This document shows positions 2,935 to 32,000 of a stretch of 32,000 nt of DNA, in pieces. A program made the position numbers and the translations under genes. Positions within the stretch are counted from its first letter, which is position 1. Every line of letters starts with the position of its first letter. The DNA lies in NCBI GenBank assembly GCA_030690755.1, contig JAUYGA010000030.1, forward strand, positions 1 to 32,000, in the 5' to 3' direction. The notes below the pieces were generated by a model. The model had not been told where the DNA came from. It saw only the letters and a program-made list of their open reading frames with translations, and ran no database searches. The DNA comes from Nanobdellota archaeon. GTDB lineage: Archaea > Nanobdellota > Nanobdellia > Woesearchaeales > JAUYGA01.

Positions 2935-4158
2935 TCATATCTTCAGATTCTTTTTTATGCTTTCAATCGCTTTCTTGATGTCTTTAGGATGACCAAATGC
3001 GCTAAGCCTGACAAAGCCTTCGCCGCTCGGGCCAAAACCTGAACCTGGTGTGCATACGACATTCGCTTCCTCAAGAAGTTTGCTGAAAAAATCCCATGAA
3101 CTCATCTGATTCGGGCATTTCATCCAGATATAAGGAGCATTGACGCCACCATAGCATTTTATTCCAATGCTTTCCAGGCCTTTTTTGATTACAGAAGCGT
3201 TTTTCATATATAGGTCAATTACTTTTTGCGTTTCTTTTAGTCCTTTCTTGTCAAGAGCTGCAATGCCGCCTTCTTGGGCAATGTTAGACGCGCCGTTAAA
3301 CTTTGTGCATTGTCTTCTGTTCCACAGCGAATTGAGATTTGCTCCATCTTCTGTCATCAATGTTTTTGGAACAACAGTCCAGCCAAGTCTAACGCCAGTA
3401 AAGCCTGCTTCTTTTGAGAAACTGTTTATTTCTATTGCGCATCTCTTTGCGCCAGGTATCTCATAGATGCTTCTAGGCAAACTTGAATCATAAATAAACC
3501 GTTCATAAGCTGAATCAAATATAATGACTATTTTGTTTTTAATCGCATAATCTACAAATTTCTTCAATTGTTCTTTAGTTGCAACTGCGCCTGTTGGATT
3601 GTTAGGGCTGCAGATGTATATTATGTCAACTTTTTCTTGAGGTATCTCTGGGAAAAAGCCATTTTTTTCAGTGCAAGGCATATAGACTATCCCTTCATAT
3701 TGTCCATTTTCCCGAATCTTGCCTGTCCTTCCAGCCATGACATTGCTGTCCACATAAACTGGATATGCAGGGTCCTGGATTGCGATTATAGATTCTTTTG
3801 AGAATAATTCCTGGATATTTGCAGTATCAGATTTTGCGCCGTCGCTTACAAATATCTCATCAGCCTCAATCTTTTCGACAGCTTTTTTGTACTTCACTTC
3901 AGCAATTTTCTTTCTCAGCTCAGTATTGCCTTGCTCATCGCCATAGCCCGTGTAAGTTTCAACAGAAGCGAGCTTTTTAACACCCACGCCAAGTCCTTTA
4001 ATGATGCTTGATGGCAGGGGTTCAGTAGTGTTTCCTATACCTAGGCGCATTATCTTTACGCCAGGATGTTTCTCGGAAAAAGCTCTTGTTCTTTTTGCTA
4101 GCTCAGGAAACAGATAGCCTCCTGGAAGATTTTTGTAAGCTGGATTTGAATTTGCCAT
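2935..4158 (-). CDS. dapL: LL-diaminopimelate aminotransferase (class I/II PLP aminotransferase)
   Basis: The N-terminus (NPAYKNLPGGYLFPELAKR...KHPGVKIMRLGIGNTTEPLP), the SPNNPTG motif and SFSKEAGFTGVRLGW (PLP-lysine region) match DapL-type enzymes. The length is 407 aa. Confidence 0.8.
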   Translation of the reverse strand: MANSNPAYKNLPGGYLFPELAKRTRAFSEKHPGVKIMRLGIGNTTEPLPSSIIKGLGVGVKKLASVETYTGYGDEQGNTELRKKIAEVKYKKAVEKIEADEIFVSDGAKSDTANIQELFSKESIIAIQDPAYPVYVDSNVMAGRTGKIRENGQYEGIVYMPCTEKNGFFPEIPQEKVDIIYICSPNNPTGAVATKEQLKKFVDYAIKNKIVIIFDSAYERFIYDSSLPRSIYEIPGAKRCAIEINSFSKEAGFTGVRLGWTVVPKTLMTEDGANLNSLWNRRQCTKFNGASNIAQEGGIAALDKKGLKETQKVIDLYMKNASVIKKGLESIGIKCYGGVNAPYIWMKCPNQMSSWDFFSKLLEEANVVCTPGSGFGPSGEGFVRLSAFGHPKDIKKAIESIKKNLKI

Positions 4159-4316: not shown

Positions 4317-5579
4317 TCAAGTTTTTTGGTTAATGATCCATTTCCATACGGGCATTATTGTAATTTTTTTATTCTTGATATTTATCTCATCTGCTTGCTC
4401 ATAGGTAAGCAACAGTCCTTTGTTCAGCTTGAATTTATCCATTGCTTCTAATAACCCATTCACTTCCCTCTCCTTATTCTTTTCATCCAACAAATGGCAC
4501 ACCTGTATGCTTTCTCTGATCTTTGTTCCATCTTTGACAATAAAGTCGCATTCATTTTTGCCGACGAAATAGTATGTTTCTTTTTTCGCTCTTTTTAGTT
4601 CTATAAAAACAATGTTTTCCAGTATCCTTCCCTTGTTTTCAGAGAAGTTCAGGCCAGTTATTTTATGGAAGGCCGAGTCGACAATATAGATCTTTCTCGC
4701 CGTGTTCAATTGTCTTTTTGCAGAGAAGTCAAATCTCAGAAGTTCGAAAAACAGATATGAGTTCTGCAAGTAAGAGATGTATTCTTTCACAGTTATTGCG
4801 TTTGACAAGCCAAGGCTTTTCTTAAGCGAATTATATGTGAATTGCGATGAAAGGTTCGTCGCCAATAAGTTTACGAGTTCCTTTAGTATTTTCTGTTTCT
4901 TTATGGCGTATCTGGCTATTATGTCCCTATAAAGAATGTTCTCATAGATTGTCCTTATATAATCATCATCTTTGTTTTTCAGATATTCAGGCATGCCGCC
5001 TTCATTTACAAAATATTCAAAGTTTTTTATTATTCTGATTTTTTTTTCAAGAACATATGCAGTATTTTTTTCAATCTTTATTTCTTTTGAATCAAGATAC
5101 TCTGAAAAAGAGAATGGATAAACTTCGAAGGCCTTATATCTGCCTGTTAATCTGGTTCCTAATTCTTTGCTGAGCAGGGAGGCATTAGAGCCTGTGATGA
5201 TTATCTTCTTGCCATTATCCTGAAGTCGTCTTACAAATGTCTCAAATTTTTCTATGTTTTGTATTTCATCGAAAAAATAGATTTTCGGTATTCCATAAGC
5301 TTCCATAAGCACCTCGTTAAGCAGCTCAAAATCCTGGGCCCTGAAATCTATGAATCTTTCATCTTCAAAATTGACATAGCAGTAATCATCTTTCTTTTGC
5401 ATTACCTGTTTAAGCAAAGTGGATTTTCCGCTTCTTCTGACGCCTGTTAATATTATTATGCGGTTATCCTTGAAGGAGTTCAGAATATCGGCTAGAATGG
5501 TTCTAGTAACTGTTTTTTCAATAGTGATTGTATTCTTTTGCTGAGCAATAACTTGCCTGAGAGTTTCTTTCTGTATCAT
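4317..5579 (-). CDS. AAA-type ATPase of the archaeal ATPase / DUF4143 family (COG1373-like)
   Basis: It has a Walker A motif (GVRRSGKST) and a Walker B-like motif (IYFFDEIQ). The length and C-terminal architecture are typical of the DUF4143 family. A TATA-like tttatatataaa lies about 25 nt upstream of the ATG. Confidence 0.7.
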   Translation of the reverse strand: MIQKETLRQVIAQQKNTITIEKTVTRTILADILNSFKDNRIIILTGVRRSGKSTLLKQVMQKKDDYCYVNFEDERFIDFRAQDFELLNEVLMEAYGIPKIYFFDEIQNIEKFETFVRRLQDNGKKIIITGSNASLLSKELGTRLTGRYKAFEVYPFSFSEYLDSKEIKIEKNTAYVLEKKIRIIKNFEYFVNEGGMPEYLKNKDDDYIRTIYENILYRDIIARYAIKKQKILKELVNLLATNLSSQFTYNSLKKSLGLSNAITVKEYISYLQNSYLFFELLRFDFSAKRQLNTARKIYIVDSAFHKITGLNFSENKGRILENIVFIELKRAKKETYYFVGKNECDFIVKDGTKIRESIQVCHLLDEKNKEREVNGLLEAMDKFKLNKGLLLTYEQADEINIKNKKITIMPVWKWIINQKT

Positions 5580-6240: not shown

Positions 6241-6423
6241 TTAGTTGAGTATTGGATGATTTGTTTTAAAGTTTGTGTAACATTTATGTAAAATTCAGAA
6301 AACTTTCAGAAATTCCGTGATAATTACGCATTTTTATCGTCAATAACCACTCGCCTCACTCGCCAACCACCCTGTGAAGGTATATAAATCACTTAATCCT
6401 ATGTAGAATAAGAAAAATAAAAA

Positions 6424-6465
6424 CTGGACTTATGATCCAGTCAACACATGCACCTGTGAAGTTGA
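6424..6465 (+). repeat. partial duplicate of the tRNA anticodon arm plus the start of the variable arm, followed by its own bulged hairpin
   Basis: 6424-6458 matches 6532-6566 at 33 of 35 positions. The copy folds as CTGGA/TCCAG (loop CTTATGA), followed by TCAAC-ACA-[TGCACC]-TGT-GAA-GTTGA. Confidence 0.8.
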
Positions 6466-6504: not shown

Positions 6505-6614
6505 GCCAGGGTGGTCGAGTCTGGTAAGACGCTGGACTTATGATCCAGTTGACACATGCACCTGTGTCACACGGGTTCAAACGTCAACATGGGCTGAAAA
6601 TCCCGTCCCTGGCG
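6505..6614 (+). tRNA. intron-containing tRNA: Ser-like class II body, anticodon loop CTTATGA (anticodon UAU), 19-nt BHB intron in the T-loop (6582-6600)
   Basis: The elements I can read are:
- Acceptor stem GCCAGGG/CCCTGGC, with G73.
- D arm GTCG-AGTCTGGTA-AGAC.
- Anticodon stem CTGGA/TCCAG.
- Variable-arm hairpin TGACACA-TGCACC-TGTGTCA.
- T stem ACGGG/CCCGT, whose loop is interrupted. Removing 6582-6600 restores TTCAAAT. Confidence 0.8.
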
Positions 6615-6732
6615 CATATATTTTAGATAGGATTGAAAATCAGTGATTTATCTGCGAGTCGCTCGCAGGCTCGCGACAAGTGCCTGCGCATTTTTAGTTA
6701 ATTTTTTATAGCCCTGTTATTTTCTTTAATTC

Positions 6733-7362: not shown

Positions 7363-8397
7363 ATGGTAAAAAACCCAGAAACTCCAGAGAACCGAGAAAA
7401 ACCAGACTCTGTGCCGCAGCATATGTGGGATAGATTTAAAGACGATCCTGAGATTGGTCCAATTTGGGCAAAAAAACGCGCTCAAGAGAATAGAATGAAG
7501 AGCAGTAATCTTGGTAGTATGATTTCAGCAATGGCTGGAAGTATGCTTGGCATAAATCTAGATGAAGAGTCTGTTAACATAGATTCAGACGGTCTTCAAA
7601 CGAAAATTGCAGAATATGATTTTAATAAATTATCGCAGATGAGGGAATTATATGTGAAAATATCCTCAGAAAAGAGCAAGTATGATCAGCTTGCAAGCGT
7701 TCACAAAGCAGGAAATATTCAATCTTCTGATAAACGCGACCAAACTAAACAGGATAAGCTTGTCTTCTATATTGGCATGTATGCATATTCCCTCAGCATG
7801 AAATTTAACAGCTTAGCTGATTTATTAAAGACCACTTATGATGCCGAAGAGTTCGGCAAAGAGCTTAACGAGAAAGTCGATGCAATTATTGGGTTCTCAG
7901 AGCAATCATATAAATTCATAAATCAAAGTAATAATTTGATGGATTATCTTTACAATCAACCAGTCAAGTTAGACAAAATTGATGTGGCTGAGTCGGAAAA
8001 GAAAGAACATAGACGTGTTTTCAAAGAGCTTCCTATGAAGAAAAGCGAGGCCGGATTTCTGCTTAGCGATAATAGGAAAGTTCTAGAGAGCATACAGATA
8101 AATAAGATCTTGATGAATGTCTATGATGCAATCAGTTCAGCTATCAATGGGCGGGCTGAGGAGTCATTCAACTATTTGAAACTTTCACAGAAAGGAGCGG
8201 CAGCTTATATAGAATCTAGTAAGATGATATTTAAAACTAAAGAGCAGATGACAATCGCGAATAGCACGATGCTACCTATTGCGCAATATCTGCTTGACAG
8301 CGTGGATCTGATTAATGGCTCAATACCTGCAACCCCAACAAAATACACCCGATTAAGAGTTGCATGTTCGGATGTTGTAAGGCAGCTGGCTCAATAA
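7363..8397 (+). CDS. hypothetical protein (344 aa)
   Basis: This is a long ORF co-directional with the CYTH gene and 63 bp downstream of it. I recognise no motif. Confidence 0.5.
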   Translation: MVKNPETPENREKPDSVPQHMWDRFKDDPEIGPIWAKKRAQENRMKSSNLGSMISAMAGSMLGINLDEESVNIDSDGLQTKIAEYDFNKLSQMRELYVKISSEKSKYDQLASVHKAGNIQSSDKRDQTKQDKLVFYIGMYAYSLSMKFNSLADLLKTTYDAEEFGKELNEKVDAIIGFSEQSYKFINQSNNLMDYLYNQPVKLDKIDVAESEKKEHRRVFKELPMKKSEAGFLLSDNRKVLESIQINKILMNVYDAISSAINGRAEESFNYLKLSQKGAAAYIESSKMIFKTKEQMTIANSTMLPIAQYLLDSVDLINGSIPATPTKYTRLRVACSDVVRQLAQ

Positions 8398-16291: not shown

Positions 16292-18913
16292 ATGATACAA
16301 TTTTACCCGCTAGATGTTACATACAAGGAACATGAAGGAAAGGCCGTAATCTATCTATTTGGCAGAACGTCTTCTGGAGAGCAGATCCTTGTTTTGGACA
16401 GGAATTTTGAGCCTTATTTTTATGTTCTTTTGAAGCAGAATGCTGATGTCGACCAGTTAAGAAATAATTTTAAAAAAATCAAGATAGAAAGCGATAAGGA
16501 AACTGCTGGCGCAAAGGATTTTGTTTTTGTCACAAAAACCGAAATTGTTGAAAAGCTTTATTTTGGGAAAAAAGTCCAGGCGATAAGAGTCTATTCAAAC
16601 CTGCCAAGGTCTGTTCCTGTTCTGAGGGATTTTTTGAAACAGCAGCCTGATGTCAGCGTTGTTCTGGAAGCAGACATACAATTCACAAGAAGGTATCTGA
16701 TTGACAAGAAGATAACTCCGTTGTCGCTTTGCGAGGTTGATGGTGAAGAGGGCAGCGCAAGAGCCAAGGTAAAATACATTATTGATGCAAAAAGCATAAA
16801 ACAGCTTGGCGATCAGATCATTGAAAAGCCAAGAATGCTTGCTTTTGATATAGAGACTTATTCTCCTGATAAGCGAATAATCCCTGAGCAGAATCCCATT
16901 CTTATGATTTCTTTTTATGGCGATTTTGACGCCTCAGGCGCAGGAGGAACTTCGGGAGTTGACTCAGGAAGTGGTTTTAAGAAAGTCATTACTTGGAAGA
17001 AATTCAAGACAGATTTTGATTACATCGAGTTTGTCAATAGTGAAGCAGACCTTCTTGAAAGATTCAAAGAGGTTGTCGAAGATTATAAGCCTGATTTTAT
17101 GGTAGGATATTTTTCTGATGGATTTGATCTTCCATACATAAAGACAAGGTCTGAGAAATACAAAATCAAGCTGGACATTGGTCTGGACCACTCAAACATA
17201 GAACTTGGCAAAGGAACAAAAAACACTGCGCAGATAACAGGTATAATCCATCTTGATATCTTCAAGTATGTGAGCAAAATCCTTGGAAAGACTCTTGAGA
17301 CAGAATCTTACCGTTTGGATTTGGTTGCAAATGAACTTCTTGGAGAAAGAAAATATGATGTGGATATAGGGGAGTTGCATAAGGTCTGGGACAATAAGGA
17401 TGTTTCTCCAGATGAGATTGAAAAATTCTGCATATACAATCTTCAGGATTCTGTTCTGACATTGAAACTTGCAAGAAAAGTATTGCCAAACATAATAGAA
17501 CTGGTAAAGATTATTGGCTTAACTGTTTATGATGTCAACAGGATGAGCTCTTCACAGATAGTCGAATGGTATCTGATAAATAAAGCAAAGGAGTATAATC
17601 AGCTTGTTCCTAATCGTCCTCCATACACTGAGACAAAAGAACGCTTAGAGCAGAGTTTTGAAGGCGCTTTTGTTTTTGAGCCAAAACCTGGACTTTACAA
17701 AGAGGTTGCTATTTTTGATTATCGCAGTCTATATCCTTCAATAATCAGTTCTCATAATATCTCTCCTGGGACTCTTGACTGTTCATGCTGCGAAGATGAT
17801 GGAGATTATGTTCCGACAAGTTTTCTTAATGAGGTTGTTCGTTCTGAAAAATCAGAAAAAACAGAAAAAAATGAGAAGCCAGAAAGAACAGAAAAGGAGC
17901 CTGCGCAGAAAAAGGCAAAGCATTGGTTTTGCAAGAAAAGGAAAGGTTTCATCCCGATAATAATCGAGGAGCTTATCAAGAGAAGGATGCGCATTAAGGA
18001 GATGATGAAATCAGGCGATGCTGAAAAGAATGTTTTCTTAGACGCAAGGCAGCAGACATTGAAACTGATGGCCAACTCATTTTACGGTTACCTCGGCTTT
18101 TTCGGAGCAAGATGGTATTCTATCGAATCCGCTGAAGCAGTAACTGCATACGGCAGGCATTACATCCTTAAAGTCATAAATGAAGCCCAGAAGAGAAAGT
18201 TTGTTGTCCTATACAGCGACACAGATTCTATCTTCCTGCATCTGGAAGGAAAGACATTGAAAGAGGCTCTTGATTTCAGCGAGGAGATAAATGTAGAGCT
18301 TCCAGGCATAATGGAACTGGAATTTGAAGGGGTTTTTCCTGCAGCATTATTTGTTTCTGCAAAAGAAGGAAGCTATGGCGCAAAGAAAAAATATGCCTTG
18401 CTTGACAAAAAAGGAAACATCAAAGTCAAGGGTTTTGAATCTGTAAGAAGAAACTGGAGCCTTATTGCAAAAGATTTGCAGGAAAAAGTTCTTGGGATTG
18501 TTTTAAGGGAAGGCTCTGGGAAAAAAGCCCTGGAGTATGTGAAGAGCGCAATAACTGATCTTAAAGACCATAAAGTTTCGCTCGATAAAGTCCAGATATT
18601 CACGCAGCTTCAAAAAGAAATAGAGGATTATGATTCTGTCGGTCCTCATGTACGCGTTGCAATGCGCATGAAAGCAAAAGGTATTGATGTAGGTCCTGGT
18701 TCGATAATAAGATATGTGATTACTTCTGGAAAAGAACGTATTGGCGAGAGGGCAAGGCTTGTTGAAGAGATATCGCAGAAGGACTATGATGCAGATTATT
18801 ACATAAATAACCAGGTTATTCCTGCAGTTGATAAGATTCTTGCAATATTTGGGTATAGTAAAGATGATTTTTTGAGCGAGAAAAAACAGAGCAAGCTTGA
18901 CGGATTTTTCTGA
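16292..18913 (+). CDS. polB: family-B DNA polymerase
   Basis: It has Exo I (FDIETY), motif A (DYRSLYPSII), motif B (KLMANSFYGYLG), motif C (YSDTDS) and KKKYA. No intein-like block is present. Confidence 0.9.
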   Translation: MIQFYPLDVTYKEHEGKAVIYLFGRTSSGEQILVLDRNFEPYFYVLLKQNADVDQLRNNFKKIKIESDKETAGAKDFVFVTKTEIVEKLYFGKKVQAIRVYSNLPRSVPVLRDFLKQQPDVSVVLEADIQFTRRYLIDKKITPLSLCEVDGEEGSARAKVKYIIDAKSIKQLGDQIIEKPRMLAFDIETYSPDKRIIPEQNPILMISFYGDFDASGAGGTSGVDSGSGFKKVITWKKFKTDFDYIEFVNSEADLLERFKEVVEDYKPDFMVGYFSDGFDLPYIKTRSEKYKIKLDIGLDHSNIELGKGTKNTAQITGIIHLDIFKYVSKILGKTLETESYRLDLVANELLGERKYDVDIGELHKVWDNKDVSPDEIEKFCIYNLQDSVLTLKLARKVLPNIIELVKIIGLTVYDVNRMSSSQIVEWYLINKAKEYNQLVPNRPPYTETKERLEQSFEGAFVFEPKPGLYKEVAIFDYRSLYPSIISSHNISPGTLDCSCCEDDGDYVPTSFLNEVVRSEKSEKTEKNEKPERTEKEPAQKKAKHWFCKKRKGFIPIIIEELIKRRMRIKEMMKSGDAEKNVFLDARQQTLKLMANSFYGYLGFFGARWYSIESAEAVTAYGRHYILKVINEAQKRKFVVLYSDTDSIFLHLEGKTLKEALDFSEEINVELPGIMELEFEGVFPAALFVSAKEGSYGAKKKYALLDKKGNIKVKGFESVRRNWSLIAKDLQEKVLGIVLREGSGKKALEYVKSAITDLKDHKVSLDKVQIFTQLQKEIEDYDSVGPHVRVAMRMKAKGIDVGPGSIIRYVITSGKERIGERARLVEEISQKDYDADYYINNQVIPAVDKILAIFGYSKDDFLSEKKQSKLDGFF

Positions 18914-19938: not shown

Positions 19939-20002
19939 ATGTTGTTCTAATTTTTTTTGTAGGGTAGCTAATAATTCTGGCTTTAACTTTTTTATTCTAA
20001 CT

Positions 20003-20104
20003 GCGGCAAGAATAATGGCGGCAGACGGACATTTTCTACTGAAAATGTCCTACGCGACACTCCGTAGGAGCCATCCCTCGTCGCGTCTGCGCCATTGTTG
20101 CCGC
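20003..20104 (+). ncRNA. GC-rich structured element, copy B (same family as 12469-12613)
   Basis: It has a terminal stem (GCGGCAA..AATGGCG-G-CAGACG pairing with CGTCTG-CGCCATT-GTTGCCGC). A perfect 10-bp hairpin spans 20027-20050, and a second hairpin (CTCC-GTA-GGAG) spans 20060-20070. Confidence 0.6.
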
Positions 20105-20139
20105 ATGTGAAAATTATAGATTATGAAAAATCCAACTCT

Positions 20140-20219
20140 GGCGGCGGCGAGCCGGGGGACGTCCCTTACGGGGTGGCGAGCAGGGCAAATTTACAAAGTA
20201 AATTTGACCGTCGCCTGCC
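20140..20219 (-). ncRNA. GC-rich structured element, copy C (inverted relative to A and B; lacks the outermost stem)
   Basis: Its reverse complement aligns with the cores of A and B (GACGG - AT-rich hairpin - CCTGCTCG - short GC hairpin - CTCGCCG). The hairpins are at 20184-20209 and 20163-20172, and the second has a GUAA loop on the minus strand. Confidence 0.55.
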
Positions 20220-20298
20220 AGAAGTAGATGGATTTTTTAAATATCCCTTAAGAAAGATAGATTTGCGATGGGTTTTTATTATTTTGACTATTCCTTTA

Positions 20299-20322
20299 TT
20301 TTGCGCCGATGATGACGTTATC
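20299..20322 (+). repeat. 24-nt exact direct repeat copy 1 (contains a C-box AUGAUGA); second copy at 20459-20482
   Basis: ttttgcgccgatgatgacgttatc is identical at both sites, exactly 160 bp apart. Confidence 0.9.
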
Positions 20323-20462
20323 AACCCCTAACTTTTACGAAAAGTTAGGACCAAAAGAGGTCAGGCATAAAGCCTGACTACGCTCTTTGAAAGTAGCTTT
20401 GATGCGAGCGGTTTTTAATTCTTTCTCGATGGTTTTTTAAAAGAAAATGCAATATTACTTTT

Positions 20463-20526
20463 GCGCCGATGATGACGTTATCCCCGCGATGGTTTAGTCC
20501 ATCGATAAGATAACTTACTGAGGCGC
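20463..20526 (+). ncRNA. C/D-box-like K-turn hairpin RNA candidate
   Basis: 5' GCGCC pairs with 3' GGCGC. The C box AUGAUGA (20469-20475) faces the D box CUGA (20518-20521). Inner stems are GUUAUC/GAUAAC and CGAUGG/CCAUCG. Confidence 0.55.
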
Positions 20527-20690
20527 GCTTAAATTCAGTTTTTTTAAGTCATTTAAATTGCAAACAATAGTTCACAATTTAAGCATCATCCCAGACTTCA
20601 TCGTCTTTGTTATCCCAGAGCTCTTTCATTTTCTGCTGCTGAACTCTATGTAGAAATTTGTCGTATTGACTGCTTTTTTTTATCAGCATT

Positions 20691-30406: not shown

Positions 30407-30471
30407 AAATATCATGCGCCGACTTATTCTCGTAATGCTTTTTATATTCTTTCTCTTCTTCTTTCATTTTC

Positions 30472-30550
30472 CTGTGTTTTATGAAATGGTTGCACGCAAA
30501 ATAAGATACTCCAACAAACAGGACGGCCAATATTATGATATTACAATTCT
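30472..30550 (-). pseudogene. relic copy of the dedA 3' end (direct repeat R1)
   Basis: A gapless hand alignment with 31700-31778 gives 63 of 79 identical positions. The relic translates as ...AVLFVGVSYFACNHFIKHRK, against the dedA C-terminus ...AVLLVGVSYFVYHHFIKHRK. Confidence 0.75.
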
Positions 30551-31626: not shown

Positions 31627-31683
31627 AGATATTTAAATGTTTCGGTCAAAAACCATTTTTACAGTGTTGGCAGGTATTTGCTC

Positions 31684-32000
31684 TTACTCGTTTATTTTTC
31701 TGTGCTTTATGAAATGGTGGTACACAAAATAAGATACCCCGACCAACAAAACTGCCAATATTATTATGTCAAGAATCTGGCTGTATTTGAGTATTTCATC
31801 CCAGTTACTTTTCAGGTAAAATCCGACAACTGTCAGGAATGTGTTCCATAATCCTGCGCCCAAAACAGTGTAGAATGAGAATTTCCAGATATTCATCTCA
31901 GCGATTCCTGCAGGGATAGATATCAGATGCCTGACAACAGGTATGAATCTGCTGATAAAAATAGTCGGACTGCCATGCTTTTTGAAGAAACTATGGGTCC
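31684..32000 (-). CDS. dedA: DedA-family membrane protein, C-terminal part (the gene runs off the right edge)
   Basis: The reverse translation contains RFIPVVRHLISIPAGIAEMNIWKFSFYTVLGAGLWN, a typical DedA/SNARE-associated segment. Confidence 0.75.
   Translation of the reverse strand, partial: THSFFKKHGSPTIFISRFIPVVRHLISIPAGIAEMNIWKFSFYTVLGAGLWNTFLTVVGFYLKSNWDEILKYSQILDIIILAVLLVGVSYFVYHHFIKHRKINE
31700..31778 (-). repeat. direct repeat R2 (functional dedA 3' end) matching R1 at 30472-30550
   Basis: See R1. The two copies are 1228 bp apart and bracket the MNT-HEPN pair. Confidence 0.75.

Follow-up and report, generated by a model that had tools for sequence, protein, structure and literature searches.

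Positions 6505 to 6614 on the forward strand of a 32,000-nucleotide stretch from a Nanobdellota archaeon (contig JAUYGA010000030.1 of assembly GCA_030690755.1; hereafter the window) hold a genuine archaeal tRNA gene, which is split at tRNA position 59/60 by a 19-nucleotide bulge-helix-bulge (BHB) intron. The encoded tRNA joins a class II body of serine type to a UAU anticodon, matching the isoleucine codon AUA. Such a combination may be undescribed in Archaea and may represent a natural instance of off-code decoding; as far as the literature was searched, no paper describes an archaeal class II tRNA with an isoleucine anticodon. An original prediction, made from the DNA letters alone, had proposed both the intron and the odd pairing of body and anticodon, and its account of a serine-like class II body with anticodon UAU, G37 and G73 was borne out in each of these features by the sequence and by an alignment of related genes.

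The acceptor stem is a perfect 7-bp helix (GCCAGGG, 6505-6511, with CCCTGGC, 6607-6613) followed by G73 at 6614; U8-G9 is present, and the 3-bp D stem (GTC/GAC) carries G13.A22. The anticodon arm consists of a 5-bp stem (CTGGA/TCCAG) and a 7-nucleotide loop, CTTATGA, in which the anticodon TAT occupies 6539-6541 and G37 lies at 6542. A stem and loop of these sizes leave no room for a second intron or a shifted anticodon register, both of which were rejected. The variable region of 22 nucleotides (6549-6570), with its 7-bp stem, is followed by a 5-bp T stem (ACGGG, 6571-6575, with CCCGT, 6602-6606) that encloses 26 nucleotides instead of 7. No stem of the window copy contains a mismatch, and CCA is not encoded. 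We also rejected a tRNA-Sec, an allo-tRNA or a tRNA with an 8-bp acceptor stem, because the acceptor/T branch is the standard 7/5 in this gene and its relatives, the -1:73 pair is not conserved, and position 74 varies.

The nucleotides enclosed by the T stem adopt the BHB geometry. A 4-bp central helix (TTCA, 6576-6579, with TGAA, 6595-6598) is bordered by 3-nucleotide bulges on opposite strands (AAC, 6580-6582; AAT, 6599-6601) and by an inner helix of 3 bp, one of them a G.U pair (GTC, 6583-6585, with GGC, 6592-6594). Excision of 6582-6600 gives back a canonical 7-nucleotide T-loop, TTCAAAT. The predicted intron, its position and its restored loop agree with this reading to the nucleotide; the word "textbook" that had been applied to the BHB is slightly generous for so short an inner helix. 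Judging from the geometry of 37/38 introns, the 5' strand would run from stem to 4-bp helix to bulge with the cut placed after the second bulge base, and we infer that the layout reproduces, in the T arm, that of the canonical anticodon-arm intron.

ARAGORN, run with and without its intron mode, called no tRNA in the unspliced window, and Rfam likewise gave no match there at its gathering score or, for the whole window, at E <= 0.05. At a relaxed threshold the locus alone returned a partial tRNA match of 25.5 bits, and two weak matches over the intron (CRISPR-DR56, E = 0.44; sR60, E = 5.6) were set aside as chance. When the intron was removed in silico, ARAGORN called a class II tRNA with anticodon tat. 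In its minimum free energy (MFE) fold, at -41.6 kcal/mol and z = -4.05, the spliced 91-mer is a class II cloverleaf. A Logan assembly made independently from SRR13727535 is 100% identical across the whole locus, and the gene is therefore not an assembly artefact. Standard finders miss these genes, so that tRNA inventories of DPANN archaea, and inferences about their codon capacity, may be incomplete.

A family of class II tRNA genes and their T-loop introns

We scanned 185,579 species genomes with a pattern that ran from the anticodon arm through a long variable region to the first T-loop positions. Eleven loci were returned; two were chance matches in bacteria, and the other nine are archaeal class II tRNA(UAU) genes with G73, of which two lie in the Nanobdellati metagenome-assembled genome (MAG) NIOZ-UU113, two in Woesearchaeota MAGs, four on contigs of "Methanosarcinales" MAGs and one in a Nitrosopumilaceae chromosome. 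A scan of metagenomes added one further UAU gene (locus L018). The closest relative of the window by PolB (71% identity), the syntenic locus L022, has a homologous gene in the same place with the same T-loop insert and the anticodon CAA. With ten UAU genes beyond the window, the CAA gene of L022 and the window gene itself, the family numbers 12. The comparisons were confined to genome fragments, and some of the "Methanosarcinales" contigs may be mis-binned.

Compensatory changes are seen in the acceptor, D and T stems of these 12 genes, and G13.A22 and G73 are conserved. Every variable arm (V-arm), 20-23 nucleotides long, is a perfect hairpin of 6-8 bp whose sequence differs between members, and half of the genes (6/12) have one mismatch in one stem. 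Most members carry an A/T-rich TATA-like box about 25 nucleotides upstream. Two MAGs each hold two divergent UAU copies whose anticodon loops are identical. Taken together, the aligned sequences show a family under selection for tRNA shape.

Two of the loci contain arrays. On the minus strand of L008 (~3390-4085), class II genes with G73 and T-loop BHB introns bear the anticodons GAA, GAG and UAU; the homologous array on the minus strand of L011 (~7575-7905) has GAU and UAU, and the gene that reads GAG in L008 reads GAU in L011. The anticodons of the wider family (UAU, CAA, GAG, GAU and GAA) all keep A35, and all are leucine anticodons or one step from one. Two other genes were encountered along the way. 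A 36% GC metagenome contig (L017, 585-667, plus strand) encodes a bacterial-type class II tRNA with a UAU anticodon, A73, an encoded CCA and a leucine-like body, which may be a parallel case outside Archaea. In L032 (6343-6450, plus strand), what ARAGORN calls a tRNA-Ser(tga) with intron resembles, by eye, a tRNA-Asp(GUC) whose D region carries a non-canonical insert; introns of the non-canonical kind thus seem common in these DPANN genomes.

Comparison of related loci, which had been suggested as a check on the intron, placed the insert in an identical BHB register in 11 genes, the window gene counted, although its length ranges from 14 to 88 nucleotides. In all 11, T-loop positions 54-57 pair with the four nucleotides 5' of the 3-nucleotide bulge that adjoins the T-stem 3' strand, positions 58-59 and one intron base make up the 5' bulge, and excision yields TTCRAAT. 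The fixed-register alignment has 87.9% of its cells paired versus 82.1% in shuffles (0/500 reached the observed value), and sliding the register drops pairing to 34-56%. Pairing amounts to 96% in the outer helix (the 5-bp T stem), 95.5% in the central helix, where one full compensatory change is seen (TTCA/TGAA versus TTCG/CGAA), and 64% in the inner helix. The last is absent in L006 and L009, and several members thus have the relaxed hBH form.

The MFE fold of the unspliced window RNA is not the cloverleaf with BHB. Instead, an alternative fold (-48.3 kcal/mol, z = -4.3) pairs GUUGAC of the V-arm 5' strand with GUCAAC, which begins the insert, and AUGGG of the insert with the T-stem 3' strand. 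Because this fold is preferred, the intron could limit the amount of mature tRNA. The intron DNA also resembles the exon that precedes it, namely the V-arm 3' strand, T-stem 5' strand and T-loop (6566-6601; GTCA-CACGGGTTCAAA versus GTCAACATGGGCTGAAAA). Family inserts match the V-arm 3' strand of their own gene better than those of other members (36/5000 permutations reached the observed mean), and the own exon ranks first as a match for the inserts of the window, L003, L004 and L018. These resemblances suggest that the intron arose by tandem duplication of the V-arm 3' strand, T stem and T-loop, and the similarity may have been kept either by selection on the alternative pairing or by gene conversion. 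They would offer a concrete and testable route to non-canonical BHB introns.

Upstream partial copies and genomic surroundings

Upstream of the proximal TATA-like box and on the same strand, the window carries a 35-nucleotide "shadow" fragment of the tRNA gene (Table 1), a feature unmentioned in the original prediction. Nine of the 12 members (window, L022, L003, L004, L006, L013, L018, L008 and L011) carry a fragment of this kind between about -85 and -40, and in L013 and L018 it extends into a D-arm-like hairpin. The fragments match the hypervariable V-arm of their own gene, with a self score of 11.2 versus 5.6 for non-self (0/10,000 permutations). Their anticodon loops drift, mostly by transitions, to read UAU, UAA, UAC or CAU, those of L003 and L004 reading UAA. 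A structured RNA is not supported, the RNA structure of the fragment being not significant (z = -0.73), and we rejected a diversity-generating retroelement as the source of the copy: no reverse transcriptase lies nearby, and the changes are mostly transitions, often G to A, and not adenine-specific. The architecture could reflect concerted evolution of a partial duplicate or a function at the DNA level. Copies of a 10-nucleotide direct repeat stand on either side of the entire tRNA unit in the window. At L022 (1560-2100) the unit runs the other way with respect to its neighbours, the aminotransferase and CYTH genes, and the upstream block "cactcgcc" is present twice, in opposite orientations.

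Table 1. Coordinates of the tRNA unit and its associated elements in the window
Feature	Position	Strand	Remarks
10-nt direct repeat CGCATTTTTA, left copy	6327-6336	+	~0.03-0.1 expected by chance
Upstream block cctcactcgccaaccaccctgtgaaggtatataaa	6354-6388	+	conserved with relative L022; ends in a distal TATA-like box, 6381-6388
Upstream "shadow" fragment	6424-6458	+	33/35 identical to own anticodon arm and V-arm 5' strand and loop
Proximal TATA-like box TATAAAAA	6481-6488	+	-24 to -17 from tRNA position 1; read from the sequence, putative function
tRNA exon 1	6505-6581	+	acceptor 5' strand, D arm, anticodon arm, V-arm, T-stem 5' strand, T-loop 54-59
BHB intron, 19 nt	6582-6600	+	tRNA position 59/60
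tRNA exon 2	6601-6614	+	T60, T-stem 3' strand CCCGT, acceptor 3' strand CCCTGGC, G73
Oligo-T run just 3' of the tRNA	6621-6624	+	candidate archaeal terminator, judged from sequence
10-nt direct repeat CGCATTTTTA, right copy	6687-6696	+	

The tRNA gene lies in variable regions, is absent from most relatives sampled and behaves as an accessory gene. The pattern scan matched just four DPANN species genomes among the species representatives searched. Two members stand upstream of a TctA gene, a spot at which 6/8 of the lineages sampled have no tRNA, including relatives at 78% and 80% identity; these tRNA-less spots hold genes for toxin-antitoxin systems, nucleotidyltransferases or AAA_14 ATPases. 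A tRNA-like stretch in L030 was considered as a decayed copy and rejected, as it aligned too poorly (67% identity). Synteny around PolB holds just for L022; once PolB identity has fallen to 55%, linkage to the tRNA is lost. The gene that adjoins the tRNA in the window (4317-5579, minus strand) encodes an AAA_14/DUF4143 ATPase that is a strong match to PDC-S01, a defence candidate in PADLOC (E = 3.5e-112), and is missing from the syntenic L022 locus. L004 has a similar ATPase near its tRNA, and L035 has one upstream of TctA. An origin in a mobile element was rejected, since no match was found in viral contigs, phage records or plasmid records and no integrase was seen next to any member, nor were element borders seen. 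The integration target that had been listed among the possible explanations is only weakly supported.

The remainder of the window encodes TFB, aIF2-gamma, PolB, [NiFe]-hydrogenase subunits and purine biosynthesis enzymes at ~37% GC. An NCBI protein from a "Nanoarchaeota archaeon" MAG is 100% identical to the PolB of the window, whose relatives are in Woesearchaeota; this identifies the host as a Woesearchaeota-like DPANN archaeon. In the more distant Woesearchaeota loci L023, L026 and L029, PolB is followed within ~1.5 kb by a class I synthetase of ~1045 residues (tRNA-synt_1, Anticodon_1, DUF5915), which is probably an isoleucyl-tRNA synthetase (IleRS); this linkage to PolB is absent from the window. 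Elsewhere in the window we noted a candidate C/D-box small RNA (20462-20527, plus strand; terminal stem GCGCC/GGCGC, C box GATGATGA, D box CTGA, MFE z = -3.8), undetected by Rfam, whose first 24 nucleotides are repeated exactly at 20299-20322. GC-rich, apparently structured segments without an Rfam match lie at 19990-20225 (plus strand) within an AT-rich stretch of 1.2 kb that is free of open reading frames (ORFs). A 101-nucleotide direct repeat (30450-30550 and 31678-31778, 78% identity) overlaps minus-strand ORFs and may mark the starts of paralogous genes.

Amino acid identity and the reading of AUA

Archaeal seryl-tRNA synthetase (SerRS) relies on G73 and G30-C40 as determinants, and G73 is an antideterminant for archaeal leucyl-tRNA synthetase (LeuRS) (PMC9976931). 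The window tRNA has G73, G30-C40 and a long V-arm with a 7-bp stem, as an archaeal tRNA-Ser body should; its anticodon, UAU with G37, is not one of serine (NGA or GCU). For a tRNA-Leu both the discriminator, G73 in 12/12 members rather than A73, and the anticodon, UAU rather than NAG or YAA, are wrong, although UAU is one change from UAA and the anticodon loop, with A35 and G37, is leucine-like. The tRNA-Leu(UAG) of a related Woesearchaeon (L023) has A73, a 14-nucleotide variable region and a 37/38 intron, so that the textbook leucine rule holds in this lineage. An A73 and an A37 are usual for tRNA-Ile, the latter also for ANN-reading tRNAs. Against that background the combination of a UAU anticodon with the reading of AUA as isoleucine fits a tRNA-Ile3(UAU), but the class I body with A73 and A37 is missing. 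The length and pairing of the variable arm, with family stems that covary completely, place the tRNA in class II, and a long V-arm with the anticodon of another amino acid is also the mark of the nev-tRNAs. Printed reference sequences of archaeal tRNA-Ser and tRNA-Leu were looked for in papers, and none were found.

We tentatively favour, at a little short of an even chance, an accessory off-code AUA reader whose charging is determined by its body, most likely with serine. The splicing endonuclease would cut the precursor in both 3-nucleotide bulges, the exons would presumably be ligated by RtcB, and addition of CCA would yield a 91-nucleotide class II tRNA able to pair with AUA. The window itself contains no gene for the endonuclease, EndA. 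Charging would follow the body, so that serine is the most likely amino acid given G73, G30-C40 and the 7-bp V-arm, and some leucylation is conceivable through A35 and G37. Rather than being the housekeeping tRNA-Ile of the host, such a tRNA would be a low-impact AUA reader beside normal isoleucine decoding. SerRS and LeuRS disregard the anticodon, and to our knowledge all class II tRNAs with a foreign anticodon, the nev-tRNAs included, are charged by their body; charging by the body is therefore to be expected here. The nematode nev-tRNA-Ile(UAU), a class II tRNA with leucine determinants, is charged by LeuRS (Hamashima et al. 2012, PMC3333845). It is this precedent, together with the accessory behaviour of the gene, that gives the favoured explanation its weight.

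A number of observations weigh against an off-code reader charged with serine. ATA makes up 3.9% of the codons of the window and is the commonest isoleucine codon. It stands at invariant isoleucine sites of PolB, including FDIET and LYPSII, that align to isoleucine in a Thermococcus polymerase structure; the original prediction had pointed to these sites correctly, save that its FDIET codon at 16849-16851 lies in fact at 16850-16852. PolB columns at ATA have the same residue profile as those at ATT and ATC (I 61%, L 17%, V 11%, S 0.8%). The host thus reads AUA as isoleucine, and the predicted paradox of a Ser/Leu-type body on an isoleucine codon is real. In yeast, a tRNA-Ser with a GAU or GAA anticodon is lethal (PMC6125640), and the chief argument is that a well-expressed, serine-inserting AUA reader should be strongly harmful. 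Such toxicity could be reconciled with the favoured explanation only if expression were low, if decoding were poor with G37 beside U36, or if the alternative fold held back maturation. Furthermore, the pairs of divergent UAU copies in two MAGs, and a class II tRNA(UAU) directly behind the 16S-23S rRNA genes of a Woesearchaeota MAG (L009, 1197-6498, minus strand; a copy with a D-stem mismatch and without the upstream fragment), look like the traces of a useful gene. The anticodon spectrum appears to fit an origin of leucine type better than one of serine type, and the leucine-like loop, the CAA ortholog in L022 and the L008 and L011 arrays all speak against a serine origin. Finally, the scan pattern fixed the anticodon arm, which biased the family search, so that conservation of the anticodon is not independent evidence.

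Several of these points would be accounted for by a true class II tRNA-Ile, the main rival, in which IleRS recognizes UAU and the tRNA serves as an auxiliary or main decoder of AUA in a lineage that may, like Nanoarchaeum equitans, lack TiaS and tRNA-Ile2(CAU). Both the abundance of AUA and its reading as isoleucine suit this explanation, as do the rRNA-operon neighbour, the two cases of divergent UAU paralogues within one MAG, the purifying selection on structure, and the L011 array, where GAU beside UAU brings both isoleucine anticodons together. A tRNA(UAU) also replaces Ile2 in N. equitans and Korarchaeum cryptofilum (PMC6000648; PMC8450103). We know of no class II tRNA that is a substrate of IleRS, however, and in Caenorhabditis elegans IleRS does not charge nev-tRNA-Ile(UAU) (PMC3333845). 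Given also G73 and G37 in place of A73 and A37, the rarity of the family in DPANN, its absence from the same loci in close relatives and the CAA anticodon of the L022 ortholog, we regard an isoleucine tRNA as a serious possibility that is nonetheless unlikely. There is, in our view, only a slim chance that the tRNA is of leucine type, derived from tRNA-Leu(UAA) by A36U and charged with leucine, perhaps by a G73-tolerant LeuRS, so that leucine at AUA would be a conservative error. The loop CUUAUGA is one change from the leucine loop CUUAAGA with A35 and G37 kept, the CAA ortholog comes from a genome (L022) that reads UUG as leucine (77% L), the UAA of the L003 and L004 upstream fragments and the clustering of anticodons around leucine point the same way, and the nev-tRNAs provide a precedent; yet the invariant G73 would repel an archaeal LeuRS, and the canonical tRNA-Leu of the related Woesearchaeon differs in its A73 and much shorter variable arm.

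Two further explanations, each improbable in our estimation, do without a working decoder. A duplicated class II gene with a mutated anticodon might be a relic, either silent or in decay, that is expressed poorly or fails to mature and survives in an island-like region prone to recombination; this would agree with the sporadic distribution, the variable neighbourhoods, the single mismatches in half of the members, the preference of the unspliced RNA for a fold without BHB and the partial copies upstream. A relic sits poorly with a mismatch-free window copy, the compensatory substitutions found family-wide, a BHB register kept despite inserts of such varied length, the conserved TATA-like box and divergent paralogues that share identical anticodon loops; given the compensatory changes in all stems and the paired UAU copies, the degenerate tRNA-Leu or tRNA-Ser that the original prediction had offered as an option is disfavoured. 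Alternatively, the locus might be a non-translational tRNA-like element, such as an attachment site, the substrate of a tRNA-dependent enzyme, or a decoy or regulator acting with the upstream copy. The gene-specific copies, the direct repeat around the unit, its inversion in L022 and the defence and toxin-antitoxin genes nearby would suit such an element, but integrases, element borders and viral, phage or plasmid matches were all lacking where we searched, the conservation of the anticodon loop and of the full cloverleaf is what a decoding tRNA would show, and the upstream copy has no significant RNA structure. We think it very improbable, finally, that these are conditionally matured off-code class II tRNAs, in which the alternative fold hides the BHB until refolding allows splicing, for regulated mistranslation or as a tRNA "toxin" in defence and toxin-antitoxin islands, with the upstream copy as decoy or gene-conversion template; a reader of this kind would decode AUA (or UUG, UUY or AUY) with serine or leucine.

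Were the tRNAs charged according to their bodies, as we favour, Archaea would harbour natural serine- or leucine-carrying readers of isoleucine, leucine and phenylalanine codons, a prokaryotic counterpart of the nev-tRNAs and a test case for how ambiguity of the code is tolerated or exploited. Were they charged with isoleucine, the window gene would encode a class II tRNA-Ile, the first of its kind, and an identity rule would have to be rewritten. On either outcome, class II bodies with G73 and free anticodons would be natural candidates for orthogonal tRNAs in synthetic biology.

Comparison with known tRNAs

Judging by the literature searched, what appears to be new is the carrier, a class II tRNA with UAU, together with the family it belongs to, its duplicate-like intron and the gene-specific upstream copy; the 59/60 position of the intron was known already. 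The DPANN archaeon ARMAN-2 has 59/60 introns in pre-tRNA-Cys(GCA) and pre-tRNA-Pro(GGG), and its epsilon-2 endonuclease cleaved the former in vitro (Fujishima et al. 2011, PMC3239211). The T-loop intron of the window, whose predicted existence holds, is therefore not new in kind, and its novelty is less than the prediction implied. Like the ARMAN-2 introns it occurs in a DPANN host, in the T-loop, in a BHB built on the T stem; unlike them, it is carried by a class II tRNA with UAU, is shared across a whole family and is similar to the exon next to it.

As far as is known, the UAU genes of N. equitans, K. cryptofilum and ARMAN-2 encode ordinary class I tRNA-Ile. Genes for tRNA(UAU) were found in just 2/167 archaeal genomes, and that of K. 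cryptofilum is closest to its own tRNA-Ile(GAU) (PMC6000648); the ARMAN-2 tRNA-Ile(UAU) has an ordinary 37/38 intron (PMC3239211). These tRNA-Ile3(UAU) genes share with the window gene an archaeal UAU anticodon for AUA, and two of the three hosts are DPANN; the window tRNA departs from them in being class II with G73 and G37.

The nematode nev-tRNA-Ile(UAU) is closer in several respects, being a multi-copy class II tRNA that is conserved in its clade, belongs to an organism that reads AUA as isoleucine, and has an anticodon, UAU, a single step from Leu(UAA). The archaeal family differs from the eukaryotic nev-tRNAs in its serine-type G73 and V-arm of 20-23 nucleotides, its T-loop intron and its upstream partial copy. 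In the CTG-clade Candida species, tRNA-Ser(CAG) combines a serine-type class II body (G73) with a leucine-like loop (A35, G37), a pairing of body and loop that resembles that of the window tRNA. There, a rare codon was fully reassigned, whereas here AUA is abundant and stays isoleucine. Bacterial allo-tRNAs, mined from metagenomes, are class II-like tRNAs of serine or leucine identity that combine unexpected anticodons with 8/4 or 9/3 branches (Mukai et al. 2017, PMC5389517). The archaeal family likewise sets an unexpected anticodon on a class II body, but does so with a 7/5 branch.

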